Shown: positions 2,620-26,376, counted from the first letter of the stretch. The stretch: DNA of 64,000 bases from Candidatus Latescibacterota bacterium (GCA_965217585.1 OZ244561.1:5056001-5120000), one strand, 5' to 3'. Numbers and translations are program-made. Notes: a model not told the origin generated them from the sequence alone.

Positions 2620-2740
2620 CGTTCTTTCATAGCCTCTAGGCTATTTTGTGTGTGTTTTACATGGTTGATTTGGAGTAGGAGTACAATAAAAGCATTTCGT
2701 CTTATCTACGACTGCCTTTGTGCCTGAAGGAGGTGCGTCC

Positions 2741-4291: not shown

Positions 4292-4309
4292 GCAGGCGAG
4301 GCTGGTGGC

Positions 4310-4513
4310 ACAATGCTTCTGCGACGGCGGCGGTGTTGCTCCGGCAGGGAGCCGATGTCAAGCGACGATCCCATCCTCGATTGCGATCAGGTGGTGCTGA
4401 CGCCTCATGCAGCCGATCAGACGCCCGAGGGGGTGGATTTGTTGAACGAGGGCACGGTGGATAATGTGATTGCGTTTTTGGAGGGGCGGTCGCGGAATAA
4501 TGTGGCGGTGTGA
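4310..4513 (+). pseudogene. Chimeric remnant: ankyrin-repeat fragment joined to a duplicate of the dehydrogenase 3' end
   Basis: aatgcttctgcgacggcggcggtgttgctccggcagggagccgatgtc reads NASATAAVLLRQGADV, then SDDPILDCDQV...NNVAV*. Confidence 0.75.
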
Positions 4514-4868
4514 TGTGAGGACGAGGGATGAAACAATAGGATAAACTGATGAGTGAGGAACAGCAGCACCATTTAGCCCTGCCGCAGGGGACGCGGATAC
4601 GGGACTTTGAGTTTCACCGGGTCCTTGGCCATGGTGGATTCGGCATTACCTATCTGGGATGGAATGTCACCTTGGATATTCCGGTGGCGATCAAGGAGTA
4701 TCTGCCTACGGATTTGGCTACCCGCAAGGGTGACCAATCGGTCGTGCCGCAGTCGTCGCAGGTGGTGTCGGACTTCCAATGGGGCTTGGAACGCTTTTTG
4801 GACGAAGCCCGCACTTTGGCGCGGCTTCAACATCCCAACATCGTCCGCGTCCATCAATACTTTGAAGC

Positions 4869-5386
4869 GCATGGTACGGCGTATATCGCAATGGACTATG
4901 TGGAGGGGGAGGACTTGTCGGCGTATCTGACGCGCAAGGGGACGCTGCAAGAAGCCGAGCTTAAGGGCATTCTGTATCCACTGTTGGATGCCTTAGAAGT
5001 GGTGCATGGTGCTGATTTCCTGCATCGGGACATCAAGCCGGGCAATATCGTCCTGCGCGATGTGGATGGATCGCCTGTGTTGCTGGACTTTGGTGCGGCG
5101 CGTCAGGCGATAGGGGCGAAGAGTCGTGCATGGTACGGCGTATATCGCAATGGACTATGTGGAGGGGGAGGACTTGTCGGCGTATCTGACGCGCAAGGGG
5201 ACGCTGCAAGAAGCCGAGCTTAAGGGCATTCTGTATCCACTGTTGGATGCCTTAGAAGTGGTGCATGGTGCTGATTTCCTGCATCGGGACATCAAGCCGG
5301 GCAATATCGTCCTGCGCGATGTGGATGGATCGCCTGTGTTGCTGGACTTTGGTGCGGCGCGTCAGGCGATAGGGGCGAAGAGTCGT
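4869..5386 (+). repeat. Tandem duplication of 259 bp (4869-5127 / 5128-5386) causing a frameshift
   Basis: gcatggtacggcgtatatcg...gaagagtcgt repeated back to back; the copies look identical. Confidence 0.9.
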
Positions 5387-5957
5387 TCGGTTACGTCGAT
5401 TGTGACGCCGGGGTATGCACCGATAGAGCAGTATTCGAGTCGGGGGCGTCAGGGGGCTTGGACGGACATTTATGCGTTGGGTGGGGTGTGTTATCGGGCG
5501 TTGACCGGGGAGGTGCCCGACGATGCGACGGATAGGATGCGAGATGACCCGCTGATCCCGGTATCGCAACGGTGTGCGGGTCAAGCGAGTCGAGGGTTTC
5601 TTTTAGCGATAGATGTGGCGTTGTCGGTGGATGAGGGGGATCGTCCTCAGAGTGTTGGGGCTTGGCGGGCGGTGCTAGCGGCGGAGGTGGCGGAAGCGCA
5701 GGAACAGGCGGCGGATACGGCGAAAGCCCAGAAGGATGAGGTGAGTGACGCGACAATCGTGGGGCATGTGGAGCAGGACGCGCCGCCATCGGAGCCGCAG
5801 AAGAAGCCCTTGTTCAAGCGGCTTGCCGTAGTCTTGGGCGTGGTTGCTCTCTTGGTTGGGGGCAAAATGTATGTTGATCATGCCGAACAGGTAGCGTTGG
5901 AGAAGCAGCGTCAAGAACAAGCCGTAGAAAAAGCAAGACTAGCCGCCGAGCAGGCCG

Positions 5958-6226
5958 AGCAGCAGCGTCGGGAACAGGCGGCGTTAGAGCAGCAGCGTCA
6001 GGAGCAGGCAGCCTTAGAGCAGCAGCGTCGGGAACAGGCAGCCTTAGAGCAGCAGCGTCAGGAACAGGCGGCGTTGGAGCAGCAGCGTCGGGAACAGGCG
6101 GCGTTAGAGCAGCAGCGTCAGGAGCAGGCAGCGTTGGAGAAACAACGTCAGGAACAGGCGGCGTTAGAGCAGCAGCGTCAGGAGCAGGCAGCGTTGGAGA
6201 AACAACGTCAGGAACAGGCGGCATTA
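5958..6226 (+). repeat. 30-bp tandem repeats encoding (Q/K)QR(R/Q)EQAALE coiled coil
   Basis: About 9 units of cagcgtc(a/g)gga(a/g)caggc.gc.tt(a/g)gag. Confidence 0.9.
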
Positions 6227-7158
6227 GAGGCTGTCTGAAAACCCTTGCTGTAGCCCGTATTTGAATCGGCGTACTCATCGGGCCATATTCAGGTTTCGCT
6301 ACAAAATCTGAACAGAAAGGCTCGTATGATGAGTACGCCTAGTGGCCAATATGCCACCGATGTAACCGATGCGCAATGGCGGCGGATCGAACCGTTGCTG
6401 CCGGCTTCGACTTGGCAACCGAACGGTCCGGGTCGGCCGCCGCGGGATCAACGCCAGATGGTCAACGGCCTTTTGTATTTGACCAAGACCGGGTGTCCTT
6501 GGGCGCTGCTGCCTTCTTGCTTTGGGCCGTGGAAAACGGTGTATGATTACTTTCGTCGCTGGAGTCTACAAGGGGTCTGGCCACAGGTATTGGATCGACT
6601 CACCCAGCGAGAACGCCGCCTTAACGGACGGGCCCCTCAGCCGTCGGCTGGTTGTGTCGATAGTCAGACGATCAAGACGGCAACCCACGGTAAAACAACC
6701 GGTTATGACGCCGGCAAAAAGATCCAAGGACGTAAACGTCATCTGTTGGTCGACACCTCGGGCTTGCTTAGAGAGGTGGTGGTCACCGCCGCCGATGTAG
6801 ACGATCGCGACGGCTTGAAGCAGGTGTTGACCCGCTATAGTACTCCCGACGTACCCCGGTTACGCAAACTGTGGGTCGATGGCGGCTATCGAGGCGATCC
6901 GATCCGAACGTGGGTGGCCAACCTAAAAAAGACGCACAAAATAGACTTGGAAGTCGTCGCCAAACAAGGCGGCGGATTTACCGTAGTCAAACGTCGTTGG
7001 GTCGTCGAGCGCACGTTTGCGTGGTTGATGAATTTTCGCCGCCATGCCCGAGATTATGAGGTGTTGACCCGCCATAGCGAGGCCTTGATTCAGATTGCCA
7101 TGATCCACTTGCTACTCAAACGGATCAAATAGAAAAAATGGAGTTTTCAGACAGCCTC
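6227..7158 (+). mobile_element. IS5-family insertion sequence (IS1031-like), 932 bp
   Basis: 16-bp inverted repeats GAGGCTGTCTGAAAAC / GTTTTCAGACAGCCTC; TTA target duplication at 6224-6226 and 7159-7161. Confidence 0.95.
6326..7132 (+). CDS. IS5-family transposase
   Basis: YATDVTDAQW, W..LP..FGPWKTVY, VDSQT, GRKRHLLVDT, WVDGGY, RWVVERTFAW. Confidence 0.95.
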   Translation: MMSTPSGQYATDVTDAQWRRIEPLLPASTWQPNGPGRPPRDQRQMVNGLLYLTKTGCPWALLPSCFGPWKTVYDYFRRWSLQGVWPQVLDRLTQRERRLNGRAPQPSAGCVDSQTIKTATHGKTTGYDAGKKIQGRKRHLLVDTSGLLREVVVTAADVDDRDGLKQVLTRYSTPDVPRLRKLWVDGGYRGDPIRTWVANLKKTHKIDLEVVAKQGGGFTVVKRRWVVERTFAWLMNFRRHARDYEVLTRHSEALIQIAMIHLLLKRIK

Positions 7159-7719
7159 TTAGAAAAGCAACGTCAGGAGGAACAGGCAGTACTAAAAGAG
7201 GCAAGGGCGTCGTACAGTCTGCACAAGGCGGCGAGGAACAATGCTTCTGAGACGGTCGAGGTGTTGCTCAATGGGGGAGCCGATGCCAACGCCAAAGACA
7301 ACAGTGGCAATACGCCGCTGCACGGGGCGGCGTGGAACAATGCTGCTAAGGCGGCCTTGGTGTTGCTCAATGGGGGAGCCGATGTCCACGCCAAAACCAA
7401 CGCTGGCTTTACGCCGCTGCACGTGGCGGCGGCGGAGGATGCTTCTGCGATGGCGGAGGTGTTGCTCAAACAGGGAGCCGATGTCCACGCCAAAACCAAC
7501 GCTGGCTTTACGCCGCTGCACGTGGCGGCGGCGGAGGATGCTTCTGCGATGGCGGAGGTGTTGCTCAAACAGGGAGCCGATGTCCATGCCAAAGACAGAT
7601 TTGGCCATATGCCGCTGCACTATGCGGCGCGGAATAATGCTTCTGCGACGACCAAGGTCTTGCGTCGTTACGGCGGTCGAAAGTGAAACAAGCTGATTTT
7701 TGAAATAATCGGAGATGCT

Positions 7720-9210
7720 ATGAGCGAAGCGCAACATCCTCTTCACGCCTTACCCCGAGGACATCGGCTGCAAGAATACGAACTGGTGCGCGTGCTAGGC
7801 TTTGGCGGCTTCGGCATGACTTATCTGGGCTTTGACCACAACCTCGACAAAGCCGTCGCCATCAAAGAATACTTGCCCTCCGACATCGCCACCCGCACTG
7901 CCGACCACAGCGTCGCCCCACAAGCCAGCGACTTTCGCGGCGATTTCCAGTGGGGTCTGGAGCGTTTCCTAGACGAAGCACGCACCTTAGCTCGTTTCGA
8001 CCATCGCCACATCATTAAAGTGTATCGTTTCTTTGAGGCACATGGTACGGCGTATATCGTGATGGAGTATGCCGAGGGCGAGACCTTATCGGCGTATTTC
8101 GAACGCAAGGGGACACTGGAAGAAGCCGAACTCAAGGGGATACTGTATCCGCTTCTGGATGGTTTAGAGGTGGTGCATAAAGCGGACTTTCTGCATCGGG
8201 ACATCAAGCCGGGCAACATTGTCCTGCGCGCAAAGGATGGATCTCCGGTGTTGCTGGATTTTGGTGCGGCGCGTCAGGCGATAGGTGCGAAGAGTCGCTC
8301 AGTTACGTCGATAGTAACGCCGGGGTATGCTCCGATCGAGCAGTATTCGAGTCGGGGGCGTCAGGGGCCTTGGACGGACATTTATGCGTTGGGTGGGGTG
8401 TGTTATCGGGCATTGACGGGTCAGGTGCCCGACGATGCGACGGATAGGGTGCGGCAGGACCCGCTGATTCCGGTGGCGAAGCGGTGTGCGGGTCGGGTGA
8501 GTGGTGCGTTTTTGTCGGCGGTTGATTCGGCATTGTCGGTGGATGAGGGGGATCGTCCGCAGAGCATTGCGGCGTGGAGGGCGGTGTTGGAGGTTGGTTC
8601 GGCCTCGGCGCAAGAGCGTCGCCAAGAGGAAACGCCGAGGCATAGGGAGCAGGTCGTGCAGAGGTCGCCTTTGCCGGAGCAAGTTGGCTTGGCGGAGGAG
8701 CGAGAAAAATTTGTCGCGGAAGTGGGGCGCGAGCCGTCCCCGGGCGCGGTGGGCGATGAGGGGAGGACCGACCTACATCATGCCGCAGCCATGAACCTGC
8801 CCGCACTAACTGCATACCTGTTGAACAATGGTGCGGATGTCAACGCCAAAAGCAAATATGGCTGGACGCCGCTGCACCGGGCGGCGTGGGAGGATGCTAC
8901 TGCGACGGCCGAGGAGTTGCTCAAGGGAGGAGCTTACATCCACGCCAAAGACAAAAGTGGCTGGACGCCGCTAGAAAGGGCGGTATATAGAAAAGCTCAT
9001 AAGACGGCCGAGGTATTGCGCCGCTACGGTGCCCGCAACAATAAGTCGGGTGGTAAGGGAAATAGGGAAAGTGGTCAGGCGCAGCACGCGAAGCTCGGCC
9101 GCCTCTCTGACGGTGCCAATAAGTCGAGGGGCGAGGAGAATATGGGTTGTATTACGAAGAGTCTTGTGGGTATGGGGGTCCTAGTTTTGATCGGCCTTCT
9201 TAGCTGTTGA
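7720..9210 (+). CDS. Ser/Thr protein kinase with C-terminal ankyrin repeats
   Basis: Complete Hanks kinase motifs; about 3 ankyrin repeats (GWTPLH); hydrophobic C-terminal tail. Confidence 0.9.
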   Translation: MSEAQHPLHALPRGHRLQEYELVRVLGFGGFGMTYLGFDHNLDKAVAIKEYLPSDIATRTADHSVAPQASDFRGDFQWGLERFLDEARTLARFDHRHIIKVYRFFEAHGTAYIVMEYAEGETLSAYFERKGTLEEAELKGILYPLLDGLEVVHKADFLHRDIKPGNIVLRAKDGSPVLLDFGAARQAIGAKSRSVTSIVTPGYAPIEQYSSRGRQGPWTDIYALGGVCYRALTGQVPDDATDRVRQDPLIPVAKRCAGRVSGAFLSAVDSALSVDEGDRPQSIAAWRAVLEVGSASAQERRQEETPRHREQVVQRSPLPEQVGLAEEREKFVAEVGREPSPGAVGDEGRTDLHHAAAMNLPALTAYLLNNGADVNAKSKYGWTPLHRAAWEDATATAEELLKGGAYIHAKDKSGWTPLERAVYRKAHKTAEVLRRYGARNNKSGGKGNRESGQAQHAKLGRLSDGANKSRGEENMGCITKSLVGMGVLVLIGLLSC

Positions 9211-9239
9211 CGGCTAGTTTGAACGTACACGGAGAGGTT

Positions 9240-10845
9240 ATGAGCAAACAATACCTATCTTTCATCGTGCATTTCGCAGTGGCTTGGCTCTTTTGCACGA
9301 GCCCTGTCTTGGCGCAAATAGATGTCGATGTTGTTGCTGAAAGCATCGTGCGGGTTCGCGCTTATGACGATCACAAAGTCGTGGTTGAAGGGAGCGGGTT
9401 TGTCGTCAATGAAAAGGGATATGTGCTGACGAATGCCCATCTCCTAGAGAAGGCAGAGGGATTGACCGTATTGTCCCTGAAGACCGGGGCCGAGGTTGTG
9501 GCGCAGCGGGCGTTTGCCAGCCGCGACATGAACTTGGCCCTGTTGCACGTACAGGGCTTGAACTTGCTGCCCCTCAGCTTATCCGAGCGGGGCCGATGTA
9601 GGCCGAGTCGTGCAAACGCTGCGGTTCGGCGCTACGGGAGCTGTTCAGCTTTCTCACGGGACGATTGGCACATACCAAGATATCCTCGGCAAGAAGACAA
9701 GCCGTCCTATAGCACACCTGCTACAACACAATGCCTTGATAAATGCCCAAGCCTTCGGCATGCCCTTGTTCAACGAATGCGGGGATGTCGTCGCCATCAA
9801 TATGCCAGATCCGGGCAGCGGCTCGTGGCCGTTTCGGAAAGCGAAACCCAAAGGGACTATTTTTGCCTTGCGCAGTGGCGACATAATAGCTGCGCTCGAA
9901 GACCAAGAAATCGCACATACAGTGGTTGAAGCAGAATGCCTGAGTGCCGTTGAGCGGGCTGAACGCGATAGAAAAGCGGCCGCTGACAGCCTCAAGGTAG
10001 CCAAGGCGCAGGCCGACTCGGCAGGCAAAGCCGCAAAAAAGGCCAAGGCACAGGCCGACTCGGCAAGCGAAGCCGCAAAAAAGGCCAAGGCCAAAGAGAA
10101 GGTCACTCGGCGGGCGGCAGAACGGGCGAAAGCGCGAGCCGATTCCGCAGAGAAAGCGGTGGCCGACAGCCTGAAGATGGCTAAGGCTCGGGCTGATTCC
10201 GCGAGTAAGGCGGCGGCTGACAGCCTCAAAGCGGCCAAGGCCAAAGCCGACAGCCTGAAGATGGCGCAGGCACGGGCGGATTCCGTGAGTAAGTCGGTGG
10301 CCGACAGCCTCAAAGCGGCAGAAGAAAAGGCCGCGCAGCGATTGCAGTGGGGCATTGCTGCGGGGGCGGGACTGGTACTGCTCGCACTTCTCGGTTGGTG
10401 GCTTTCCTCACGGAGGAAAAAGGAGCAATTACAAAGCGCCGAGTCCCGCTTGAGCGAAGCCGAACAAACGGCTGAAGCAGCACGCCAAGCAGCGGAGAAC
10501 GCACCGCAACCCGCGCCGTTCAGGTGTCTATTGGAAGGCCAAGACAGTACGGGTCGGCCATTCGCCTTGACCATATCGGCCTTGGCATTGAGCGAGCGGG
10601 CCGGTGTAACGCTCGGAAGGAGCCCGGCCAACGCCGAATTTATCATTGACCACGAAGAAGTCTCCCGCGAACACGTCCGGCTTACGTATGTTGACGGCCA
10701 ACTCTACGCAGAGGACTTGAATGCCCTGAATGGCACAAAGGTGAACGGACGCCTGCTCAACCCCCGCGAACAGGTGCTGTTGCAAAACAATGATCGGCTT
10801 GAGATAGGGCCAGTCGTTTTTGCCGTGCGTTTGGTTCAGGAGTGA
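9240..10845 (+). pseudogene. Signal peptide-trypsin-like (catalytically degenerate)-coiled coil-TM-FHA protein, frameshifted near 9590
   Basis: ORFs 9207-9929 and 9610-10845 join at gagcggggccgat; GSGFVVN, TNAH; NAQAFGMPL replaces GNSGGPL; FHA motifs GR, SREH, NGT. Confidence 0.75.
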
Positions 10846-10848
10846 ACA

Positions 10849-12207
10849 TTGCACGGCTTCAGACGCTGGTGTCTCGTCTTTTTTTTGCTCGCGCTTCTAC
10901 TACCGTGCCACGCTGTTGCCGCGCCAGACTTTGACGCGCTTGAGAAGAGCGTGGTACGCATTGTAACGCAGACTAGCCAAGGGCTTGGTGCTGGCACTGG
11001 ATTCGCCATAAACGACCAAGGCCATATTGCGACCAACGTCCACGTCATAGCCAATGCCAACGCGATCAAAGCCATTCCAACCAACTCCAACGTGCTGTAC
11101 GATGTGGAAGTAATCGCCACGTCCCAAGAACTCGACCTTGCAATCGCCTATATCCCAGATATAACCCTGCCGCCGATCACGCTTTCGCTCGCACCAGCCA
11201 TAAAAGGGCAGAAGGTATGGTCCATCGGCTATCCCGGTGGGGCCGACCGGAACAGACCAGCTCACGATCCGACCGTGCAAGACGGCGTCATTGGAAGGAT
11301 TTTTTGGGGTGCGTGGCACACGCAAGAACTCAGGATTATTCAGCACAATGCCCCGACCAATCCGGGCAACAGCGGCGGACCCCTACTAGATGATTGTAGC
11401 CGGGCAATCGGCGTCAATACGCAAGCGTCTCTCGTCGTCATTAGCAGTCCATCCAGCGGGGTGACGCGGGTACCCCATGCGGCGGGCATTTACTGGTCTT
11501 CGCATATAGAGGAATTGGCAAACCTGTTGGGCGACCATGGCATTGCTTTTCAATCAGAGAGCGACGATTGTGTGGCGGCTGGTGGCATGGGAGGTTCTGG
11601 CGAGGCGGAAAAGGCGCAGCACGAGGCGGAGAAAGCCCAGCGCGAAGCGGAAAAGGCTCGGCGCGAGGCCGAACAAGCGCGAGTGCAGGCAGAAGAAGCT
11701 AGCGATCAATTTTTCGTCTGGCTGTTATTGTTGGGGGGTGTGGCATTGATCGCCTTGGTCGTTGCCTTAAAGAAGCCGCGCCAGCTTGCCCAGCAGACCT
11801 TGGAGAAGCCGCGCCAGTTCGTCCAGCAGATGAGTCGGCGCGTGACCAAAAAAGACGCGGCGGCCGTTGCAAAAGGTCCAAATCACGGCATCGTGCTGGC
11901 CGGTTTTGACGGTCGCGGCAACCGCGTCTGCATCGAGTTGTCGCCAGGCCGATTTGCCGGTCAACGCTTGGGGCTTTCGCTCGGCAGGCATCCCGAGTTG
12001 GTGGATGAAGTTGTCGCGGATGAAAACGTATCCCGACGGCATCTGCGAATTGCAGCCGAGGGCGATCAATTTTATGTCGAAGATTTGAACTCCAGCAATG
12101 GGACGTTTCTGAACGAGCAGCGCCTGTCGCCCTTTAAGCCGGCGCGGTTGGACTATGGTACCAGAGTCGCGCTGGGCGATTTGGTACTCGTGGCTTCCAA
12201 GCTTTAG
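10849..12207 (+). CDS. Trypsin-like serine protease-TM-FHA domain protein
   Basis: Signal peptide; triad TNVH / DLAIA / NPGNSGGPL; TM FFVWLLLLGGVALIALVVAL; FHA motifs GR, SRRH, SNGTF. Confidence 0.9.
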   Translation: MHGFRRWCLVFFLLALLLPCHAVAAPDFDALEKSVVRIVTQTSQGLGAGTGFAINDQGHIATNVHVIANANAIKAIPTNSNVLYDVEVIATSQELDLAIAYIPDITLPPITLSLAPAIKGQKVWSIGYPGGADRNRPAHDPTVQDGVIGRIFWGAWHTQELRIIQHNAPTNPGNSGGPLLDDCSRAIGVNTQASLVVISSPSSGVTRVPHAAGIYWSSHIEELANLLGDHGIAFQSESDDCVAAGGMGGSGEAEKAQHEAEKAQREAEKARREAEQARVQAEEASDQFFVWLLLLGGVALIALVVALKKPRQLAQQTLEKPRQFVQQMSRRVTKKDAAAVAKGPNHGIVLAGFDGRGNRVCIELSPGRFAGQRLGLSLGRHPELVDEVVADENVSRRHLRIAAEGDQFYVEDLNSSNGTFLNEQRLSPFKPARLDYGTRVALGDLVLVASKL

Positions 12208-12215
12208 ATGGGGTA

Positions 12216-13217: not shown

Positions 13218-13218
13218 T

Positions 13219-13587
13219 ATGAACAAATCGAGATTTTCTGTGTACCGAATCGGTCGCGGCTCAGGCGTGGACATCCAGATTGACGATGATTCGGTCTCTC
13301 GCGTCCATGCCGAGCTAATTGCGACGCAAAGCGGCTCTTACTATCTCACCGATTGCGCCAGCAGCGGGGGTAGTTATGTTGCACGAAACGGCGAGTGGAG
13401 ACGCATCCGGCAGGAATTTATAAGCCCGACAGACGCGATTTTACTAGGTCATTATCAGACGACCGCACCCGCACTTATCGCTATGGCCGTGCAAAGGGAG
13501 CACCGTTCAGGAGAGGGCACGTCCCTGCCCGAGGGACCAGTGCGGCGCAACGTAGATACGGGTGAGATCATTGGCGAGGAGGATTGA
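13219..13587 (+). CDS. FHA domain protein
   Basis: IGR...DIQIDDDSVSRVHA...D..S.GGS. Confidence 0.85.
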   Translation: MNKSRFSVYRIGRGSGVDIQIDDDSVSRVHAELIATQSGSYYLTDCASSGGSYVARNGEWRRIRQEFISPTDAILLGHYQTTAPALIAMAVQREHRSGEGTSLPEGPVRRNVDTGEIIGEED

Positions 13588-13588
13588 C

Positions 13589-14374
13589 ATGGCAAAAGGG
13601 CAAGGGGTAGAGCTGGAACAGCGCCTAAAAGTATGCGGCGTCAGTTTGCTAGGAGGCGTCGTATCTATAGCGATTATGAGCATTATTTTCGATCATCCCG
13701 ATTCTGGGGCAGGTGCTTTCCTGCTAGATCGCCACACGGAGAATTTTCCCTATCCATTCACAATCCAAAACGTCATGTGGCTTATGTTTTGGGTCGGCTG
13801 CGGTGAACTCTGGGTGCGGTTTAATCAAGCCAAGCTGGAAATGGAGCAGATGTCGAAACGCTATCTGCCGGAGGACGATGAGGTTATGTTGCGGGCGCGG
13901 GATTTGGGTTCCTTTTATCAGAAGGTGAAACCCATGGCCGAGGAGCGCGCCTTTTATTTACAGCGTCTAATCATGCGCTGTATTCTACAATTCCAGGGGA
14001 GCCACTCAGTGAACCAAGCCAACTCGCTATTGAATTCTTCCCTCGAATTATTTCAGCACGAGCTCGAACTCAAGTACGCGATGTTGCGCTATCTCGTCTG
14101 GCTGATACCAACGCTGGGTTTTATTGGCACTGTGGTGGGTATTGCGTTTGCATTGGATTATGCGGCCAACATTGAAAACCCACAGGACCCGACCTTGCTG
14201 GCCGGGATCACGGGTCGGCTGGGCGTCGCGTTTTACACGACCTTGCTCGCGTTGATCCAGTCGGCACTGCTGGTGTTTGCGCTGCACATTGCGCAAAGCC
14301 AGGAGGAGATGGCCTTAAACCAATCCGGCCAATACTGTTTGGACAACTTAATCAACCGGCTTTACGAAAAGTAA
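13589..14374 (+). CDS. MotA/TolQ/ExbB proton-channel family protein
   Basis: IPTLGFIGTVVGI and GVAFYTTL signature helices; start MAKGQ at 13589. Confidence 0.85.
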   Translation: MAKGQGVELEQRLKVCGVSLLGGVVSIAIMSIIFDHPDSGAGAFLLDRHTENFPYPFTIQNVMWLMFWVGCGELWVRFNQAKLEMEQMSKRYLPEDDEVMLRARDLGSFYQKVKPMAEERAFYLQRLIMRCILQFQGSHSVNQANSLLNSSLELFQHELELKYAMLRYLVWLIPTLGFIGTVVGIAFALDYAANIENPQDPTLLAGITGRLGVAFYTTLLALIQSALLVFALHIAQSQEEMALNQSGQYCLDNLINRLYEK

Positions 14375-14427
14375 GTTGCGGGCGAGACGCCTGCGCGGCC
14401 GGAATAACCCAAAGATAGGAGGGCATC

Positions 14428-15081
14428 ATGCCTGTTTATCGCGGACCCGATGGCAAAATCATTGAAGAGAAAACCGATAAGCGGACAGAGGATACCAAAC
14501 CAACGGACGCGGCCAACAAGCCGTTGCCGCCGGCACCACAGGGTGGCGAGCAACCCGCCGGTGCCGGGCGTTTAGATGCGCCCACGCAGCGGATGGGCGA
14601 AAGCCGTGCGCCGGCCAATGTCGGCGAGGAGGAGCGGACGCGCTTGGTGGGTGGACGGCGGCGGCAAGAAGACGAGGAGCGCCGGCAAGAGCGCGCCGAG
14701 GAAGATCGCGGCATGGATGATCCGGTTGTGGGGTGGTTGGTAGTTGTCGAGGGGCCGGGAAAAGGGAAGGCCGTGCAACTGGGTTATGGCTCTAATTCGA
14801 TTGGACGCGGGGAGACCGATCGCATCAAGCTCGATTTTGGCGACGATCAGATTTCGCGCAATGGCCATGCCGTTGTTACGTACGATCCTCGCGGCAGGAA
14901 GTTTTATGTGCAGCACGGCGGCGGCACCAACCTGACGTATCTCGGGGATCAGCCCGTGCTCGCACCGGCTGAGTTGCCAGCGCTGAGTCACATCAGCATC
15001 GGCAATACGGTTCTCCGTTTCGTGTCCCTGTGCGGTGCCGAGTTTGATTGGCAGGATACCGAAGGAAGCGAAGCGCGATGA
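14428..15081 (+). CDS. FHA domain protein with disordered Thr-containing N-terminus
   Basis: PVVGWLVVVEGPGKG, IGR, D..ISR..HA, TNLTY. Confidence 0.85.
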   Translation: MPVYRGPDGKIIEEKTDKRTEDTKPTDAANKPLPPAPQGGEQPAGAGRLDAPTQRMGESRAPANVGEEERTRLVGGRRRQEDEERRQERAEEDRGMDDPVVGWLVVVEGPGKGKAVQLGYGSNSIGRGETDRIKLDFGDDQISRNGHAVVTYDPRGRKFYVQHGGGTNLTYLGDQPVLAPAELPALSHISIGNTVLRFVSLCGAEFDWQDTEGSEAR

Positions 15082-16235
15082 ACGAGTTAGACGGGCGCTT
15101 TGCCGCGCGGCAAATTCCCGGCAAACGGGAGTATCAAGAGGATGATTACGGCCTGCTGGATGGGCGCGACCTCGGCCTAGACGGTAGCGAGCACTCCATG
15201 TTGTTGGTCGCCGATGGCATGGGCGGCCATGTTGGCGGCGCGACGGCTAGCGGCCTTTTGAGTAAGACCTTTGTCGAGGTGTATTCGCAGGCTTCTGGGC
15301 CAATCGTCGATCGGCTCCGGGACTGCCTCGAAGCGGGTAATAAAGCCATCGCCGATGCCATTGCCGAAAATCCCGAACTCGACAGCATGGGTTCGACCTT
15401 GGTTGCGGCTGTTGTTTCAAGCGAAGGGCTGAACTGGATCAGCGTGGGCGACTCTCCGTTGTGGTTGTTTCGCGAGGGTCAATTGGAGCGTTTGAATGCA
15501 GACCACTCTATGGCTCCGGTTCTTGCGGATCTCGTGGCAACGGGGCGCATGACCGCAGAGGAAGCGGCTCGAGATCCAAGTCGGCACTCGCTGCGGTCGG
15601 CGGTCATGGGCGATGACATACATCTGATTGACGTATCGTCGCAGCCGGTGGCGGTCGAGCAGGGCAACCGGCTGCTATTGGCGAGCGATGGTTTGATGAC
15701 CCTCAGCGACCAAGAGATCGAGGCTATCCTCAAGAAAACGCAAGACGCGCCATTGGAGGATAGCGCCGCGGCCCTTATCCAAGCTGTGGAAGATGCCGAA
15801 CAGCCCCACCAAGACAATACGACTGTCTTATTGTACGCGCCGGCTGAGAGTGCGGAATTGGCTGCGGCTGCTATTGGCGAACAGGAAGCTGCTCAGGGTA
15901 AGCCGCGATTAAAACGAAAACGCCGAGGCAGACTGTTGGGGATGTTGCTATGCGTTGCTGTCTTATGGGGGGTGCTTTATTGGCTTAGGCGGGGCGAAGA
16001 TGCGGTTGTTGAGATTCCAGCGGCAACTGTTGAGACTCCAGCAACAACGGATGTTGAACCCACTGAAGGCTCTGATGTTCAAGTGCCAATGGCATCCGGC
16101 GCCGAAGAGAGCGCACCGGTTTCTCAGGAGGAGGCGACAGGGGACAGCACTCGTGCGGGGGTGGAGAAAGCCGAGTTGAACGAGCCGCCAGCAGAGAAAG
16201 AAGAGAGTGTTAGGGTCGAGGGAGGGGAAGAGTGA
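15078..16235 (+). CDS. PP2C/PPM-family Ser/Thr phosphatase with C-terminal TM and acidic tail
   Basis: REYQED, VADGMGGH, MGST, VGDS, DHS, LASDGL, DNTT. Confidence 0.92.
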   Translation: MNELDGRFAARQIPGKREYQEDDYGLLDGRDLGLDGSEHSMLLVADGMGGHVGGATASGLLSKTFVEVYSQASGPIVDRLRDCLEAGNKAIADAIAENPELDSMGSTLVAAVVSSEGLNWISVGDSPLWLFREGQLERLNADHSMAPVLADLVATGRMTAEEAARDPSRHSLRSAVMGDDIHLIDVSSQPVAVEQGNRLLLASDGLMTLSDQEIEAILKKTQDAPLEDSAAALIQAVEDAEQPHQDNTTVLLYAPAESAELAAAAIGEQEAAQGKPRLKRKRRGRLLGMLLCVAVLWGVLYWLRRGEDAVVEIPAATVETPATTDVEPTEGSDVQVPMASGAEESAPVSQEEATGDSTRAGVEKAELNEPPAEKEESVRVEGGEE

Positions 16236-16276
16236 AATCGTAGGGGCGTCGCTACGATACAAACACGGGACAGATT

Positions 16277-18400
16277 ATGAGTGGGGAACAACAGCATCGC
16301 TTGGCGTTGCCGCAGGGGACGCGCATACGGGATTTTGAGTTTCACCGCGTCCTTGGCTACGGCGGGTTTGGCATTACCTATCTGGGATGGAACATTGCCT
16401 TGGATATTCCCGTGGCGATCAAGGAGTATCTGCCCGCAGACTTGGCTACCCGCGAACAAGACCTGTCCGTTGTGCCGCAGTCGTCACAGACAGCGGCCGA
16501 TTTCCAATGGGGCTTGGAACGCTTCTTGGACGAAGTTCGAACCCTTGCACGCTTTCAGCACCGCAACATCGTCCGCGTCCATCATTTTTTTGAAGCGCAC
16601 AGTACTGCCTATATCACAATGGACTATGTGGAGGGGGAGGACTTGTCGGCGTATCTGACGCGCAAGGGGACGCTGAGCGAAGACGAGCTTAAAGCGATTC
16701 TGTATCCACTGTTGAGTGCTTTAGAAGTGATACATCAGGCTGATTTCCTACATCGAGACATCAAGCCGGGCAACATTGTCTTGCGCGATTCGGATGGTGC
16801 GCCGGTGTTGCTGGACTTTGGCTCGGCACGTCAGGCGATAGGAGCGAAGAGTCGTTCAGTTACGTCGATTGTGACGCCGGGGTATGCGCCGATCGAGCAG
16901 TATTCGAGTCGGGGTCGTCAGGGGCCTTGGACGGACCTTTATGCGTTGGGAGGTGTGTGTTATCGGGCGTTGACGGGTCAGGTGCCGGAGGATGCGACGG
17001 ATAGGGTGCGTCTCGATCCGTTGGTTCCGGTATCACAGCGGTGTGCGGGTCGGGTGAGTGGTGCGTTTTTGTCGGCGATAGATGTGGCGTTGTCGGTGGA
17101 TGAGGGGGATCGTCCGCAGAGTGTGGGGGCTTGGCGGGAGGCGTTGGAAGTGGATGTGGTGGAAGCAGAGGGGGATGAGTTGGCCGAAGTGCCGAGGCGT
17201 GGGACGGCGGAAATACAGGAGCTCGAGACGGCGGATGTCTCGGACGTGAGCAAGGGGGGACGCGACGCTTTACCATCGGATACCAAGAAAAAGGAAGCCG
17301 TCGAGCATAAACCAGCTAGCGCAAAGTGGGTGTTCGTAATCATGGGCGGGGTCATTTTTTTCGCGATACTCGCCGGTTTTTACGACGTAAAGAACGAGCG
17401 AGCGGTGTTGGAGAAGCAGCGTCGGGAACAGGCGGTGTTGGAGAAGCAGCGTCGGGAACAAGCGGTGTTGGAGAAGCAACGTCGGGAGCAGGCAGTGTTG
17501 GAGAAGCAACGTCGGGAACAGGCAGCGTTGGAGAAGCAACGTCGGGAACAGGCGGCGTTGGAGAAACAGCGTCGGGAACAGGCGGCGTTGGAGAAACAGC
17601 GTCGGGAACAAGCGGTGTTGGAGAAGCAGCGTCGGGAACAGGCGGCGTTGGAGAAACAGCGTCGGGAACAGGCGGCGTTAGAGAAGCAACGTCAGGAGGA
17701 ACAGGCAGTACTAAAAAAAGCAGGGGTGTACAGTCTGCACGATGCGGCGTCTAAGAATGCCTATGAGGCAGCCGAGGTGTTGCTCAAGCAGGGGGCTAAA
17801 GTCAATACCAAAGCCGACAATGGCTGGACGCCGCTACACGATGCGGCGCGGAAAAATGCTGCTATGACGGCCGAGGTGTTGCTCAAGGGGGGTGCCAACG
17901 TCCACGCCAAAGACAAATATGGCTGGACGCCGTTGCACAGGGCGGCGGAGAAGGATGCTTCTGCGACGGCGGAGATGTTGCTCAAGCAGGGAGCCGACGC
18001 CAATGCCAGAAATAACTATGGCGATACGCCGCTACACATAGCGGCGCGGAATAATGCTTCTAGGACGGTCGAGGTGTTACTCAAGCAGGGAGCCGACATC
18101 CACGCCAAAGACAAATATGGCGCTACGCCGCTGCACGTAGCGGCGGAGAAGGATGCTTTTGGGACGGCTGAGGTGTTGCTTAAGGGGGGAGCCGACGCTA
18201 ACGCCAAAAACAAATATGGCTGGACGCCGTTGCACTGGGCGGCGCGGAATAATGCTTCTTCGACGGCCGAGGTGTTACTCAAGGGGAGGGCCGACGCTAA
18301 CGCCAAAACCAACAAGGGCGGGACGCCGCTGCACGTAGCGGTGGGATGGAATGCTTCTGCGACGGCGGAGGTCTTGCGCCGTTACGGCGGTCGAAAGTGA
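16277..18400 (+). CDS. Receptor-like Ser/Thr kinase-TM-coiled coil-ankyrin repeat protein
   Basis: Kinase motifs; TM WVFVIMGGVIFFAILAGF; 10 EQA(V/A)LEKQRR-type units; about 7 ankyrin repeats. Confidence 0.92.
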   Translation: MSGEQQHRLALPQGTRIRDFEFHRVLGYGGFGITYLGWNIALDIPVAIKEYLPADLATREQDLSVVPQSSQTAADFQWGLERFLDEVRTLARFQHRNIVRVHHFFEAHSTAYITMDYVEGEDLSAYLTRKGTLSEDELKAILYPLLSALEVIHQADFLHRDIKPGNIVLRDSDGAPVLLDFGSARQAIGAKSRSVTSIVTPGYAPIEQYSSRGRQGPWTDLYALGGVCYRALTGQVPEDATDRVRLDPLVPVSQRCAGRVSGAFLSAIDVALSVDEGDRPQSVGAWREALEVDVVEAEGDELAEVPRRGTAEIQELETADVSDVSKGGRDALPSDTKKKEAVEHKPASAKWVFVIMGGVIFFAILAGFYDVKNERAVLEKQRREQAVLEKQRREQAVLEKQRREQAVLEKQRREQAALEKQRREQAALEKQRREQAALEKQRREQAVLEKQRREQAALEKQRREQAALEKQRQEEQAVLKKAGVYSLHDAASKNAYEAAEVLLKQGAKVNTKADNGWTPLHDAARKNAAMTAEVLLKGGANVHAKDKYGWTPLHRAAEKDASATAEMLLKQGADANARNNYGDTPLHIAARNNASRTVEVLLKQGADIHAKDKYGATPLHVAAEKDAFGTAEVLLKGGADANAKNKYGWTPLHWAARNNASSTAEVLLKGRADANAKTNKGGTPLHVAVGWNASATAEVLRRYGGRK
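17396..17700 (+). repeat. 30-bp tandem repeats (EQA(V/A)LEKQRR) x10
   Basis: ggaacaggcggcgttggagaa(a/g)cagcgtcg periodicity. Confidence 0.9.
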
Positions 18401-18433
18401 AATAAGCTGATTTTTGAAACAATTGGAGATGCT

Positions 18434-19987
18434 ATGAGCGAAGAGCACCATCGCTTGGCGTTGCCGCAGGGGACGCGCATACGAGACTTTGAGTTTCACC
18501 GCGTCCTTGGCTACGGCGGATTTGGTATTACCTATCTGGGATGGAACATTGCCTTGGATATTCCCGTGGCGATCAAGGAGTATCTGCCTGCGGACTTGGC
18601 TACCCGCGAACAAGACCTGTCCGTCGTGCCGCAAACGACTCAGGCGGCGTCGGATTTCCAATGGGGCTTGGAACGCTTCTTGGACGAAGCTCGCGTCCTA
18701 GCGCGCTTTCAGCACCCCAACATCGTCCGCGTCCATCACTTCTTTGAGGCGCACAGCACGGCCTATATCGTGATGGACTATGTGGAGGGGGAAGATTTAT
18801 CGGTGTATCTGACGCGCAAAGGGACGCTGAGCGAAGACGAGCTTAAGGCCGTTTTGTATCCGTTGCTCAATGGCTTAGAAGTGGTGCATCGGGCTGATTT
18901 CCTGCATCGGGACATCAAGCCGGGCAATATCGTCCTGCGCGCTGAGGATGGTTCGCCGGTGTTGCTGGACTTTGGCGCGGCGCGTCAGGCGATAGGGGCA
19001 AAGAGTCGTTCGGTTACGTCGATCGTGACGCCGGGGTATGCGCCGATCGAGCAGTATTCGAGTCGTGGGCGTCAAGGGGCGTGGACGGACATTTATGCGT
19101 TGGGGGGCGTGTGCTATCGAGCGTTGACCGGGCAGGTGCCCGACGATGCGACGGATAGGGTGCGGAATGACCCGCTGATTCCGGTGGTGAAGCGGTGTGC
19201 GGGTCAAGCGAGTCGAGGAATTCTTTCGGCGATCGATTTAGCGTTGTCGGTAGATGAGGGGGATCGTCCACAGAGTATTGGGGCTTGGCGGGAGACGTTG
19301 GGGGCGGATGTGGCCTCGCAGCAAGAGTGTCGCCAAGAAGAGGAAAGGCAGTCAAGGGCCTCGTCGCCGAGTCGTCCGCCGAGATTGTCCACCTCGCAGC
19401 ACGAACACCGCCAAGAAGAAAAGAAAAAAGAGGGCATAGGCGGCGAGACCGCTGGTTCGCCTCTCACTACTCAGTCAGCGGCCAAAGTTAAAGATGCGGA
19501 GCACCTGAACACATGGTTTAAGCTCCACTGTATTTGCCTTGCTGCTATCATACCGTTGGGCGTCTCTGCTGCCGGGCTTGCCGTGTTCGGTTTACTTGCT
19601 GTCGTGTCCGGTTTACTTGCTGTGGTATTCGGTTTACGTATCCTGCATAAATTGTGGTCACTCATCCCCAATCACAAAGCAAGGACGACACCAGGCAAAG
19701 CAGTTGGATTTCTCTTTATACCGTTTTTTAATCTCTACTGGAACTTCGTTGCAATTTACGGTCTCGCCAAAGCTCTCAATACCGAAACCGGTCGAAGATC
19801 AGTCAGCGAGGTGGCTAGTTTTATCTATTGCTGCTCATTTATGGTCGCCGCGATGGCCTCCCTAGTGAATACAATGGAGGACCGGACTTTGATAATCGCT
19901 ATTGGATATATTGTTGGGGGTGTGCTCTGGTTCATCATTCTAAAGCAAATGAAGAACGCCGGCAGACTCATTTTGCAGACGGCATAA
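18434..19987 (+). CDS. Ser/Thr kinase with C-terminal multi-pass membrane domain (DUF4328/DUF4234-like)
   Basis: Kinase nearly identical to paralogs; C-terminus TTPGKAVGFLFIPFFNLYW with about 4-5 TM helices. Confidence 0.85.
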   Translation: MSEEHHRLALPQGTRIRDFEFHRVLGYGGFGITYLGWNIALDIPVAIKEYLPADLATREQDLSVVPQTTQAASDFQWGLERFLDEARVLARFQHPNIVRVHHFFEAHSTAYIVMDYVEGEDLSVYLTRKGTLSEDELKAVLYPLLNGLEVVHRADFLHRDIKPGNIVLRAEDGSPVLLDFGAARQAIGAKSRSVTSIVTPGYAPIEQYSSRGRQGAWTDIYALGGVCYRALTGQVPDDATDRVRNDPLIPVVKRCAGQASRGILSAIDLALSVDEGDRPQSIGAWRETLGADVASQQECRQEEERQSRASSPSRPPRLSTSQHEHRQEEKKKEGIGGETAGSPLTTQSAAKVKDAEHLNTWFKLHCICLAAIIPLGVSAAGLAVFGLLAVVSGLLAVVFGLRILHKLWSLIPNHKARTTPGKAVGFLFIPFFNLYWNFVAIYGLAKALNTETGRRSVSEVASFIYCCSFMVAAMASLVNTMEDRTLIIAIGYIVGGVLWFIILKQMKNAGRLILQTA

Positions 19988-20015
19988 TGGAATCACTCGC
20001 AAAAAAGGAGAAGCT

Positions 20016-24077: not shown

Positions 24078-24153
<76 letters not shown>

Positions 24154-25090: not shown

Positions 25091-25092
25091 GT

Positions 25093-26371: not shown

Positions 26372-26376
26372 CCCTC

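Follow-up and report, generated by a model that had tools for sequence, protein, structure and literature searches.

Bacterial Ser/Thr kinases carry many different sensor domains. Clusters that hold such kinases include the actinobacterial FhaA-FhaB-PstP-RodA-PbpA-PknA-PknB cluster and the Stk1/Stp1 pairs of Firmicutes, and PpkA, the kinase of the type VI secretion (T6SS) Thr phosphorylation pathway, has a periplasmic vWA domain. According to passages of PMC13713981, PpkA has a periplasmic activator, TagR, that is homologous to FGE-sulfatase. Sections of another article (PMC12204202) describe a TolQ-like gene that is tightly linked, without tolR, to a gene for a vWA protein with a TolR-like Asp helix, and state the role of this Asp in TolR, ExbD and MotB; in its main text the word "kinase" occurs 0 times, and the only match to "FHA" is FhaC. 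Recombination among paralogues has been described for the lpl cluster of Staphylococcus aureus (Tsuru and Kobayashi, 2008; PMC2568036), where a conserved stretch in every paralogue is given as the recombination site, the variable 5' and 3' portions of a single ORF have incongruent histories, and an ORF's 3' end moves as one piece with the spacer and the start of the ORF that follows.

The locus described here is chromosomal and syntenic and belongs to a Candidatus Latescibacterota-like genome; in it, a family of tandem PpkA-like Hanks Ser/Thr kinases lies around a conserved seven-gene envelope module; "the window" denotes the whole 64-kb stretch of DNA that was analysed. A search of the literature did not find the core gene set and its kinases described as a unit. 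An earlier note on this DNA had presented the kinases as a polymorphic array; the array is real, but it was overstated, and the breakage of the first kinase gene and a frameshift in the first core gene were missed. The reading preferred here, with a probability of roughly 0.7, is that the kinase array is shuffled by recombination around the conserved core, and that the kinases would act as sensors feeding an FHA/PP2C-controlled proton-motor module. Comparison among genomes shows homologous recombination and gene conversion between conserved stretches, chiefly the kinase C-lobe and the 30-nt coil repeats; such exchanges duplicate and delete kinases, make stretches of the catalytic domain uniform and join catalytic domains to other tails.

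All four kinase genes are on the + strand: K1 starts at 4549, K2 occupies 7720-9210, K3 16277-18400 and K4 18434-19987, and tblastn revealed no further kinase gene in the 64-kb window. In each kinase, a linker connects a conserved catalytic module, about 295 codons long, to a variable tail. Pfam Pkinase is matched by K1-K4 (E 1e-24 to 1e-37), with PF00069 scores of 128-130 bits for K2, K3 and K4 and of 103 and 85 bits for the two pieces of K1 (cut-off 31.7). The Hanks motifs (GxGxFG loop, VAIK, HRDIKPGN and DFG) are readable in all four translations, the frame of K1 being broken, and the closest solved-structure match of the kinase domain is PpkA (PDB 5hnv; E 1.2e-60). The kinase DNA had been called near-identical; the four kinases stand, but identity among their modules is 77-88% (K3/K4, 87.0% over 874 nt; K1 vs. 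K3/K4, 84-88%; K2 vs. the others, 77-85%), and the N-lobe of K2 has only 57-77% DNA identity to the other three. These matches are far above chance (BLAST E 0 to 1e-100), and the tails beyond the module are unrelated. Domain and repeat calls agree with the tail types first proposed, namely TM-coil-ANK, ANK, TM-coil-longer ANK and multi-pass. The tail of K1 comprises a transmembrane helix (TM), a coil of 30-nt repeats (9.1 units) and ankyrin repeats (ANK; 4.5 units of 99 nt). K2, which has a distinct N-lobe, carries 2-3 ANK repeats and a C-terminal TM (tail anchor). K3 is intact, with a TM, a coil at 17402-17697 (9.9 units) and ANK repeats at 17735-18377 (6.5 units). K4 ends in a membrane tail of four hydrophobic helices of the DUF4328 type, which scores 25.5 bits against a Pfam cut-off of 27.2; a homologous tail in the related locus L050 (L-numbers denote loci of other genomes) matches DUF4328 at E 1.5e-40.

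Between K2 and K3, the core genes, all on the + strand, are ordered TRY1, TRY2, V, f, M, F and P. TRY1 (9207-10845) encodes a trypsin-like domain without the serine motif of TRY2, a coil of 42/84-nt repeats, a TM and an FHA domain; the gene is broken here, as comparison with two relatives reveals a 2-nt gap near 9588, and relatives encode an intact protein of about 550 a.a. TRY2 (10849-12207) has a signal-like helix, Trypsin_2 with a GNSGGP motif, a TM and FHA (Pfam E 2e-25 and 4e-17). V (12216-13217) combines a TolR/ExbD-like N-terminal helix, a coil of 21-nt repeats and a vWA domain with a DxSxS motif (Pfam VWA E 1.4e-5), and when the N-termini from the window and the related loci are aligned, the Asp of its helix is invariant (71 of 71). 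The TerY-P triad (vWA, PP2C and kinase) was considered and rejected, as V matches no vWA-type PADLOC model, only coiled-coil ones and, weakly, ZorB. The small FHA protein f (13219-13587; Pfam FHA E 1.6e-13) precedes M (13562-14374), a MotA/TolQ/ExbB family protein with three hydrophobic helices (Pfam E 8e-10; PF01618 38.9 bits, cut-off 22.9). The true start of M is probably near 13589, because its homologues are mostly 261 a.a. long. A profile made from 27 homologues of M matched TolQ and PomA chains weakly (E 0.19-0.5). Judged by sequence, M and V would supply both the PF01618 subunit and the Asp-helix partner expected of a motor of the MotA/TolQ/ExbB type. F (14428-15081) is an FHA protein with a long low-complexity N-terminus (Pfam FHA E 7e-7; NCBIfam FhaB/FipA E 7e-14, under cut-off), and P (15048-16235) is a PP2C phosphatase with a C-terminal TM (Pfam PP2C_2; NCBIfam Stp1 E 7e-40, under cut-off). 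None of the core proteins reaches an NCBIfam cut-off.

The seven-gene core is conserved in related Candidatus Latescibacterota genomes, in which the number of kinases (1 to 5) and their tails vary. Its DNA is 85-93% identical to that of L047, L001, L059, L004, L005, L006, L007 and L013, and these loci are flanked, as in the window, by dehydrogenase, TIM-barrel and FAD-oxidoreductase genes. Among 61 loci with full flanks, the number of full-length kinases is one (31 loci), two (19), three (8), four (2) or five (1); M, F and K occur in every one of the 61, P is found in 59, T and V are each found in 56, and the complete set of six in 53. The record titles of the loci bear five phylum labels. Of 598 pattern matches in species-representative genomes, 565 code for a motor-protein relative.

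A functional model can be drawn purely from gene linkage and domain content, in which several sensor kinases, with their tails as receptors, would feed one core module. The kinases would be inner-membrane proteins whose catalytic domain faces the cytoplasm, and in the TM-coil types the tail would be held in the periplasm on a repeat stalk of adjustable length, so that different tails could respond to different envelope or external cues. Phosphothreonine would be read by four FHA domains, two of them soluble and encoded on either side of the motor gene, and two on the trypsin-like membrane proteins, whose trypsin-like domains are predicted to be periplasmic. Phosphorylation would control the proton-driven TolQ-like/TolR-helix-vWA motor unit, and the PP2C phosphatase would reset the system. 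A periplasmic position is unusual for ANK repeats, which counts against this model. A bolder proposal, which we regard as doubtful, is that the eight-gene set (two FHA genes flanking the TolQ-like gene, PP2C, one or two trypsin-FHA genes, the TolR-helix-vWA gene and at least one PpkA-like kinase) might be an undescribed, widespread trans-envelope machine, in which Thr phosphorylation gates a proton-driven 5:2 motor and FHA-tethered periplasmic proteases, its one sensor kinase having expanded into a recombining receptor repertoire in the present Latescibacterota lineage. If so, stalk length (30-nt repeats) and tips (ANK, Excalibur, TonB_C, FGE-sulfatase and DUF4328) would be swapped like cassettes, and each species, perhaps each strain, would have its own set of envelope or host cues.

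With regard to function rather than evolution, the locus could instead be an anti-phage or inter-bacterial conflict system whose tails diversify by sensing invaders. Defence loci often have variable sensor ends and pseudogenes; the kinases match PADLOC mad6 and PD-T4-6 (E 1e-44 to 1e-50), there are weak matches of M to ZorA (E 5.5e-6) and of V to ZorB (E 9e-4), and a type I restriction system and transposases are in the same window. However, the PADLOC kinase matches span only the generic catalytic domain, the FHA proteins match no PADLOC model, and PP2C matches only PDC-M21C (E 7e-8). Moreover, several species have the locus in the same chromosomal position, bordered by genes of housekeeping type, and the core has Ka/Ks values of 0.02-0.28 and is thus under purifying selection. 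A conflict system is therefore considered rather unlikely.

The arrangement [kinase-ANK][kinase]-core-[kinase-ANK][kinase] proposed in the earlier note is colinear in the window, with 76% identity over 1417 nt between the two sides (7220-8630 vs. 17934-19341). The junction that marks it, which consists of the end of an ANK tail, a stop codon, a 30-nt spacer with GGAG and the start of K2 in the first copy (7657-7729, + strand), was likewise found at both places named, the second copy (18371-18443, + strand) being identical at 69 of 73 positions; 60-nt windows on either side of the copies have 50-80% identity. Between the left and right [kinase-ANK][kinase] blocks, identity is 73-80% in the ANK repeats, 92% in the junction, 50-73% in the N-lobe and 85-93% in the C-lobe, and the longest exact matches are 59, 49 and 41 nt. 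The two blocks are mosaics and not the product of a single recent block duplication. Nor is the symmetry present in the closest relatives, as the kinases of L047 have coil-Excalibur and ANK tails on the left, and DUF4328 and coil-TonB_C tails on the right. Core fragments adjoin kinases in L001, L006 and L013, which is suggestive of core amplification or excision by the repeats; excision itself would be invisible in this sample, because every locus was chosen for containing the core.

Could the array be a contingency locus with a programmed, fast switch, which within a population would couple one expressed kinase to different silent tail cassettes, in the manner of antigenic variation or of the displacement of orphan toxins? 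The junction is conserved in the window and occurs between a tail end and the next start in L002, L003 and L007 also, and orphan pieces are at hand: an ANK fragment at 4307-4361, stand-alone ANK ORFs in L005, L059, L015 and L007, and a 155-nt stretch of junction and K2-type 5' stub at L047:16624-16778. On the other hand, positions 1-30000 contain 0 inverted repeats of at least 40 nt, the scanned window ORFs include no recombinase, invertase or reverse transcriptase beside the array, and every kinase has its own start codon and GGAG site. The cassettes are also 12-23% diverged, so that donors are not near-identical. Ks among paralogues is 0.3-0.5, compared with 0.16-0.37 for core and flank genes between species, and the last exchanges would thus be about as old as the species splits. 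Switching of this kind is quite unlikely; with paralogues this diverged and no exact left-right match longer than 59 nt, the sequences give no sign of ongoing exchange within a population. By comparison among genomes, shuffling is shown on the timescale of species divergence, and a programmed switch is undemonstrated. Between species, Ks is higher for the kinases (0.33-0.46) than for the core (0.16-0.37), which fits recombination with diverged donors, but also older paralogy.

The shuffling of kinase modules and tails is best seen in K1. This coil-ANK kinase is sister to the coil-Excalibur x3 kinase at L047:2207-3919 (100% SH-aLRT, Ks 0.33), both genes lie directly 3' of the same AAA-ATPase_like/PDDEXK_9 gene, and their DNA similarity stops abruptly after the last shared coil unit, near position 7194 of the window. 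Kinase-tail pairings are thus not fixed in relatives, the positional orthologue of K1 in the nearest relative having Excalibur rather than ANK. The comparison shows that tail modules are also replaced from outside the locus (ANK vs. Excalibur vs. TonB_C), with the break right after the coil. On a kinase-domain tree of 49 rows, tail class is almost random, with 20 changes against a mean of 23.9 in 300 label shuffles (range 19-26). In an AU test, a topology that unites the 11 DUF4328-tailed kinases in one clade is rejected (delta lnL 486, p 7.6e-8), these kinases being a group named post hoc after a quick tree had been inspected. K4 and the kinase at L047:13342 have a Ks of 0.51 in the kinase domain, and a Ks of 1.0 and a Ka of 0.36 in the tail. 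These trees are compatible with either tail movement or catalytic-domain conversion.

Conversion is indicated by synonymous sites. Between K2 and K1, K3 or K4, Ks is saturated over codons 1-140 (Ka 0.27-0.29) and falls to 0.32-0.41 over codons 161-260 (Ka 0.03-0.06), and this K2-type pattern recurs in L047 and L001. A C-lobe common to all four kinases beside a saturated N-lobe points to gene conversion. In addition, the kinase to the left of the core in L004 is sister to the one on its right (99%), and all three kinases of L016 group by genome. Because constraint varies along the kinase domain, a column-shuffle test for long matching runs is confounded. Ordinary duplication and divergence would require no recombination: the kinases would be old paralogues, alike in the catalytic domain through purifying selection, whose tails diverged or were fused once. 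That domain is indeed strongly constrained, with Ka/Ks values of 0.10-0.22 that imply purifying selection, and diverse C-terminal domains are general among bacterial Ser/Thr kinases, as parts of PMC1262709 state. However, constraint on the protein cannot explain the drop in Ks within one gene pair in three genomes, and sister kinases with non-homologous tails and a sharp DNA breakpoint, the AU test against one clade for one tail class, and the sister kinases from opposite sides of the core in L004 all argue against this account, which is very unlikely. The mismatch of sisters and tails, the breakpoint, the AU test and the shift in Ks together bear out recombination as the cause of the constant module with swapped C-terminal modules.

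K1 itself is a pseudogene, disrupted by a 259-bp tandem duplication and an IS5-family insertion. Its first part (4549-6226, + strand) contains the kinase domain, linker, TM (PLFKRLAVVLGVVALLVGG) and coil. Owing to the duplication, which lies in the kinase domain (4869-5386; TRF 2.0 copies, 100%), this part is broken up into two ORFs that overlap (4549-5223 and 5126-6238). Positions 4869-5127 and 5128-5386 are 100% identical over 259 nt, the frame is shifted, and no microhomology is present at the edges. The coil (5957-6229) comprises 9.1 units of a 30-nt (10-residue) repeat, and is separated from the ANK tail by the 932-bp insertion sequence (6227-7158, + strand; transposase 6326-7132), which has entered the coil; the terminal inverted repeats of this element are perfect over 16 nt, and its TTA target is duplicated (6224-6226 and 7159-7161). 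The transposase matches Pfam DDE_Tnp_1 and DUF4096 and NCBIfam transpos_IS5_3 (NF033580; 240 bits, cut-off 110), and the element is single-copy in the window. With the element removed, the second part of K1 (7159-7686), which holds the last coil unit and 4.5 ankyrin repeats, is in frame with the first.

The flanks, again on the + strand, contain duplicated pieces as well. A 2-hydroxyacid dehydrogenase gene (1612-2574; Pfam 2-Hacid_dh_C E 2e-55) is separated from K1 by an AAA-ATPase_like and PDDEXK_9 gene (2720-4291; Pfam E 3e-65 and 7e-22), which occupies the same place in L047 (L047:579-2186). The stretch 2409-2619, which runs from the 3' end of the dehydrogenase gene through the spacer into the initial 10 nt of a kinase gene, is the original of a copy at 4348-4558 (89% identity across 211 nt). 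Fused to this copy is the orphan ankyrin-repeat fragment upstream of K1 (4307-4361), which has 62-82% identity to 12 ANK units of K1, K2 and K3. Directly after K4, positions 20000-20380 copy the 5' end of the TIM-barrel gene at 21407-21787 (93% identity across 381 nt), and L047 likewise has a partial extra TIM-barrel copy. Errors of assembly or sequencing could account for the 259-bp duplication, the 2-nt frameshift and the duplicated flank pieces. That the repeated kinases too arose from a mis-joined or chimeric metagenome assembly, as a perfect duplication without microhomology, flank copies of 89% and 93% identity and the frameshift might suggest, is highly improbable given arrays of several kinases about this core in independent records whose titles name whole-chromosome assemblies (L047, L001, L004, L006 and L010), an extra TIM-barrel fragment and AAA-ATPase gene position shared with L047, an insertion sequence with clean inverted repeats and target duplication, and four kinases that are easily told apart because they differ by 12-23%.

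Recombinational shuffling of the array is of interest since the birth of new kinase-sensor pairings is rarely caught, and here it is visible at nucleotide resolution: the locus displays positional orthologues with different tips and a breakpoint at the end of the repeat stalk, and the converted C-lobe keeps the paralogues recombination-competent. The gene set also connects FHA/PP2C phospho-signalling with a TolQ-like/vWA motor, a pairing that was not proposed until 2025. This linkage therefore offers a testable idea of motor regulation and of a T6SS-independent relative of the PpkA pathway.

Compared with known systems, the T6SS Thr phosphorylation pathway (PpkA, PppA, Fha1 and TagQ/R/S/T) likewise links an inner-membrane Hanks kinase to PP2C and FHA proteins. 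A vWA domain is part of both, here on a separate protein with a TolR-like helix beside the TolQ-like gene, and the FGE-sulfatase fold described for TagR is here fused to the kinase itself in 29 of 117 tails, the second commonest tail class. The present locus differs in having two trypsin-FHA membrane proteins and several kinases instead of one; the scanned window ORFs (20 + 9 + 19 proteins) include no T6SS families, and TRY2 scores 40 bits against TIGR03354 TagH (cut-off 120). The actinobacterial Fha-Pkn cluster and the Stk1/Stp1 pairs similarly bring together membrane Hanks kinases with outward sensors, a membrane PP2C and FHA proteins in one operon, and a PknB-PASTA kinase model is matched at E 4e-39, under the curated cut-off; in contrast, motor, vWA and protease genes are found here in place of PASTA, RodA and PBP genes. 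The system in the sections of PMC12204202 has the same tight linkage of TolQ/ExbB and a membrane-tethered vWA protein, without tolR/exbD and with a conserved Asp; its vWA genes are described as mostly heterologous pairs, whereas most loci here have one, and the families are likened by description. As portrayed in parts of PMC3482391, polymorphic toxin loci (Rhs/CDI) also have a constant N-terminal part, recombined C-terminal modules and orphan fragments, but the variable parts here are binding or membrane domains without toxins or immunity genes, and the constant part is an enzyme. The features reported in the excerpts on the lpl cluster have their equivalents in the shared C-lobe, the incongruent tails and the 69/73 junction; unlike in lpl, the 3' parts exchanged here are whole non-homologous domains, the array is split by a seven-gene core, and the comparison extends across species rather than strains.

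The + strand region bounded by a 2-hydroxyacid dehydrogenase gene (1612-2574) and a xylose-isomerase-like TIM-barrel gene (21423-22256) contains four PpkA-like Hanks Ser/Thr kinase genes (K1 to K4) and seven others. A tblastn search with K3 as query detected no kinase domain beyond these four in the whole 64 kb. K3 (16277-18400, + strand) is intact and encodes a kinase domain, one hydrophobic helix, a charged coil specified by 9.9 units of a 30-nt repeat, and then 6.5 ankyrin units of 99 nt. In K4 (18434-19987, + strand) the kinase domain precedes four hydrophobic helices, whose match to DUF4328 falls slightly under the Pfam cut-off; the homologous tail in the related locus L050 scores E 1.5e-40. 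K2 (7720-9210, + strand) carries two to three ankyrin repeats after its kinase domain and ends with a helix right at its C-terminus. The catalytic motifs of the kinases are intact, and Ka/Ks values of 0.10-0.22 indicate purifying selection. NCBIfam cut-offs are reached by no kinase or core protein, only an IS5 transposase passing them.

The core between K2 and K3 consists of seven + strand genes. TRY1 (9207-10845) and TRY2 (10849-12207) share a layout of trypsin-like domain, coil, TM segment and FHA domain, while V (12216-13217) encodes an N-terminal helix, a coil and a vWA domain. These are followed by f (13219-13587), a small FHA protein; M (13562-14374), a MotA/TolQ/ExbB-family protein; F (14428-15081), a second FHA protein; and P (15048-16235), a PP2C phosphatase with a C-terminal helix. 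An Asp in V's N-terminal helix is shared by all 71 aligned homologues. Relative to the related loci L047 and L001, in which it is intact at ~550 residues, TRY1 is split by a 2-nt gap near 9588, outside any homopolymer run. The GNSGGP serine motif is present in TRY2 and absent from TRY1, both in the window and in L047; with a trypsin-like domain lacking this motif, TRY1 looks like a catalytically dead paralogue. TRY1 (42/84 nt, 10000-10319), the vWA protein (21/96 nt, 12354-12665) and the coil kinases (30 nt, 5957-6229 and 17402-17697) have in-frame DNA repeats of their own, each encoding a charged helical stalk beside a membrane helix.

K1 is broken twice, by a tandem duplication and by an IS5-family insertion, both of which an earlier note on the sequence had missed. 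Positions 4869-5127 recur exactly at 5128-5386 (259 nt, 100% identity); the edges of the duplication show no microhomology, and the frame is shifted by it. The 932-bp IS5-family element (6227-7158) lies inside the K1 coil and has perfect 16-nt terminal inverted repeats, with TTA duplicated on either side. Without the element, the reading frame passes uninterrupted from the coil to 4.5 ankyrin units (7159-7686). Another DDE transposase (26314-27534), unrelated to the first, is found to the right of the array, in a segment (24078-27534) that begins with a tRNA-Thr(TGT) gene (24078-24153), continues at 45% G+C vs 57-66% around it, and also holds three ORFs without a Pfam match; the low-G+C segment may be an integrated element. 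Further on, a type I restriction-modification system on the - strand (53037-61783) comprises HsdR (53037-56171), HsdS (58421-59671) and HsdM (60152-61783), with a DUF1828/DUF1829 gene (56188-56952) within it.

All related loci were found through the core. Homologues of the M protein number >3000. An alignment of 27 of them was used to scan a single genome for each species; 565 of the 598 pattern matches were confirmed, and 80 loci were retrieved. The nearest belong to records labelled Candidatus Latescibacterota. Eight loci (L047, L001, L059, L004, L005, L006, L007 and L013) have core DNA 85-93% identical to that of the window and are flanked by the same genes, for a dehydrogenase, a TIM-barrel protein and a FAD-oxidoreductase; together these features show the locus to be chromosomal and orthologous. 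Five phyla are named in the labels of the 61 loci with full 10-kb flanks, and the shorter L038 contributes Actinomycetota as a further one. All 61 have M, F and a kinase, 59 have P, 56 have T, 56 have V and 53 have the complete set of six; gene order is permuted among groups of loci. These 61 have one (31 loci), two (19), three (8), four (2) or five (1) full-length kinases. Several chromosomes bear the whole system two or three times (L003, L008 and L013 together; L037 with L046). The first three are on one contig and the other two on one chromosome, the copies being complete and set apart from one another, in one instance by about 31 kb. L002, an 8.6-kb contig labelled Gemmatimonadota, matches the DNA of the window core at 90% identity and its motor protein at 98%; since it is as similar to the window as Latescibacterota records are, its label may be a binning error.

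It is probable (about 0.8) that the array has been shuffled by recombination. The kinase tails vary. Among 117 tails of at least 60 residues, taken from the 123 full-length kinases and scanned with a threshold of E 1e-3 for 63 and E 1e-5 for 54, 30 are ankyrin, 29 FGE-sulfatase, 10 Sel1, 8 DUF4328 and 3 PG_binding (with or without beta-helix); TonB_C, Excalibur, TerB+DnaJ, TM2, PEGA, PDZ and Tudor occur once each, and 30 have no family or weak matches only. The earlier note had proposed that C-terminal modules are swapped, and comparison with related genomes bears this out, as tail pairings vary and even sister kinases can differ. For instance, the same AAA-ATPase_like/PDDEXK_9 gene immediately precedes both K1 and the L047 kinase at 2207-3919. 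The DNA tree of kinase domains pairs the two as sisters (100%), Ks between them is 0.33, and they have in common a helix and the same coil repeat. After the coil, K1 has ankyrin repeats vs three Excalibur domains in its sister, and the DNA alignment ends right past the last common coil unit, near window position 7194. The kinase nearest K3 and K4 by path length, L047:15042-16601, ends in a TonB_C domain after a similar coil. Coil repeat number is 9-10 in the window and lower in the two L047 coil kinases. No donor cassettes for Excalibur or TonB_C were found in the window or the other loci, except a weak Excalibur match in L058.

The kinase-domain tree comprised 49 of 124 kinases, from the window and 23 Latescibacterota-labelled loci. 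Tail class requires 20 changes on it, vs a mean of 23.9 (range 19-26) in 300 shuffles of the labels. Forcing the 11 DUF4328-tailed kinases together cost 486 log-likelihood units (AU p 7.6e-8), a group that was named after a quick tree had been seen. Between K4 and its DUF4328-tailed L047 counterpart, Ks is 0.51 in the kinase domain, and in the tails Ks is 1.0 and Ka 0.36. One long-branch kinase, L006:15698, was removed after the quick tree. It belongs to a single 1029-residue ORF (L006:15698-18787) in which the kinase domain, highly divergent (branch length 1.3-1.9), is fused with a trypsin-like domain and ankyrin repeats, and a partial second PP2C gene (L006 14718-15509) lies just upstream.

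Exchange appears to have affected the kinase domains as well. Core and flank genes of the window differ from those of L047 or L001 by Ks 0.16-0.37, and K1, K3 and K4 differ among themselves by Ks 0.42-0.50. K2 is saturated in Ks against these three over codons 1-140 (Ka 0.27-0.29), in contrast to codons 161-260, where Ks is 0.32-0.41 and Ka 0.03-0.06; the same N-lobe/C-lobe contrast recurs in L047 and L001. Constraint at the protein level does not explain a low C-lobe Ks, which indicates that the C-lobe has been exchanged between paralogues by gene conversion. In L004, the kinases left and right of the core are sisters (99%), and in L016 three kinases with different tails group by genome. A permutation test on runs of matching sites gave low p in 5 of 6 kinase pairs, a result that is treated as weak because it is confounded by uneven constraint along the domain. 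The incongruence between tails and tree, the sharp DNA breakpoint and the C-lobe drop in Ks point to recombination.

The kinase copies had been described as near-identical in DNA, but are only 77-88% identical. The direct repeat reported at the junction (ankyrin-tail end, stop, spacer and next kinase start) is real: 7657-7729 and 18371-18443 agree at 69/73 positions, a local peak, since identity in the adjoining 60-nt windows is 73-80% towards the ankyrin repeats and 50-73% within the N-lobe that follows. The same junction is present in L002, L003 and L007. The proposed pairing of kinase-ANK and kinase blocks on both sides of the core holds only in part: the blocks align over 1417 nt at 76%, but they form a mosaic, not a single recent block copy.

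The edges of the array retain scars. The dehydrogenase 3' end, spacer and first 10 nt of the kinase gene (2409-2619) are copied at 4348-4558 (89%), before K1, and a 55-nt orphan ankyrin fragment (4307-4361) joins this copy at a short common GGAGCCG motif. The AAA-ATPase_like/PDDEXK_9 gene and this fragment separate the two dehydrogenase-end copies (2409-4558); L047 has that gene at the same place, but a single dehydrogenase end. Directly after K4, the TIM-barrel 5' region (21407-21787, 381 nt) is copied at 20000-20380 (93%), and the ~1 kb between copy and original gave no Pfam match above threshold. L047 also has an extra partial TIM-barrel copy, so this duplication is older than the split of the two genomes. 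Between the last L047 kinase and its TIM-barrel fragment lies an orphan kinase 5' stub (L047:16624-16778, 155 nt), consisting of the junction and the first 120 nt of a K2-type kinase, 94% identical to window 7687-7842. K2 of L002 is a 95-residue stub, and PP2C or trypsin-FHA fragments adjoin kinases in L001, L006 and L013. Exact left-right kinase matches in the window reach 59, 49 and 41 nt. Such scars, core fragments beside kinases, whole-system copies and exact matches make unequal exchange across the core plausible. Excision of the core was directly observed in none of the loci, all of which had been located by means of it and so could not have revealed such an event.

A functional account can be offered tentatively, at somewhat short of even odds. 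The best solved-structure match of the kinase domain is PpkA (E 1.2e-60), the kinase of the threonine phosphorylation pathway that belongs to type VI secretion. TagR, the periplasmic activator of PpkA, has an FGE-sulfatase fold according to PMC13713981, and this fold is the second commonest kinase tail here; the window ORFs that were scanned include no type VI gene. The tails would serve as outward or membrane-embedded input modules, those of the coil type being held on a stalk with a length set by repeat number. Phosphothreonine marks might then be read by four FHA domains, two of which are on soluble proteins encoded, in nearly all loci, on either side of the motor gene. The system would control a TolQ-like/vWA motor and FHA-anchored periplasmic trypsin-like proteins, with PP2C as a possible reset.

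The PADLOC scan returned generic kinase and weak Zor matches only, and the locus is therefore not filed as a known defence system. No paper on an FHA-TolQ-FHA-PP2C-trypsin/FHA-vWA-kinase cluster, or on a recombining kinase array or repertoire around one, was found in the open literature. The eLife 2020 conflict-systems paper describes other vWA systems, and the mBio 2025 MotAB paper mentions neither FHA nor vWA, its sole "kinase" being a cloning reagent. The M-V pair fits the description, in PMC12204202, of vWA genes in tight linkage with tolQ-like genes and with no tolR, their products being proposed as the axle of a 5:2 motor. The kinases show the same pattern as the Staphylococcus lpl cluster, in which, according to PMC2568036, recombination occurs at a conserved stretch inside each paralogue, and a 3' end, spacer and next 5' end travel as a unit. 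Publications already cover variable sensor domains on bacterial kinases, recombination among tandem paralogues, the PpkA pathway and the pairing of TolQ with vWA, each by itself; the open literature yielded no account of the eight-gene set as a unit or of the recombining kinase repertoire around it.
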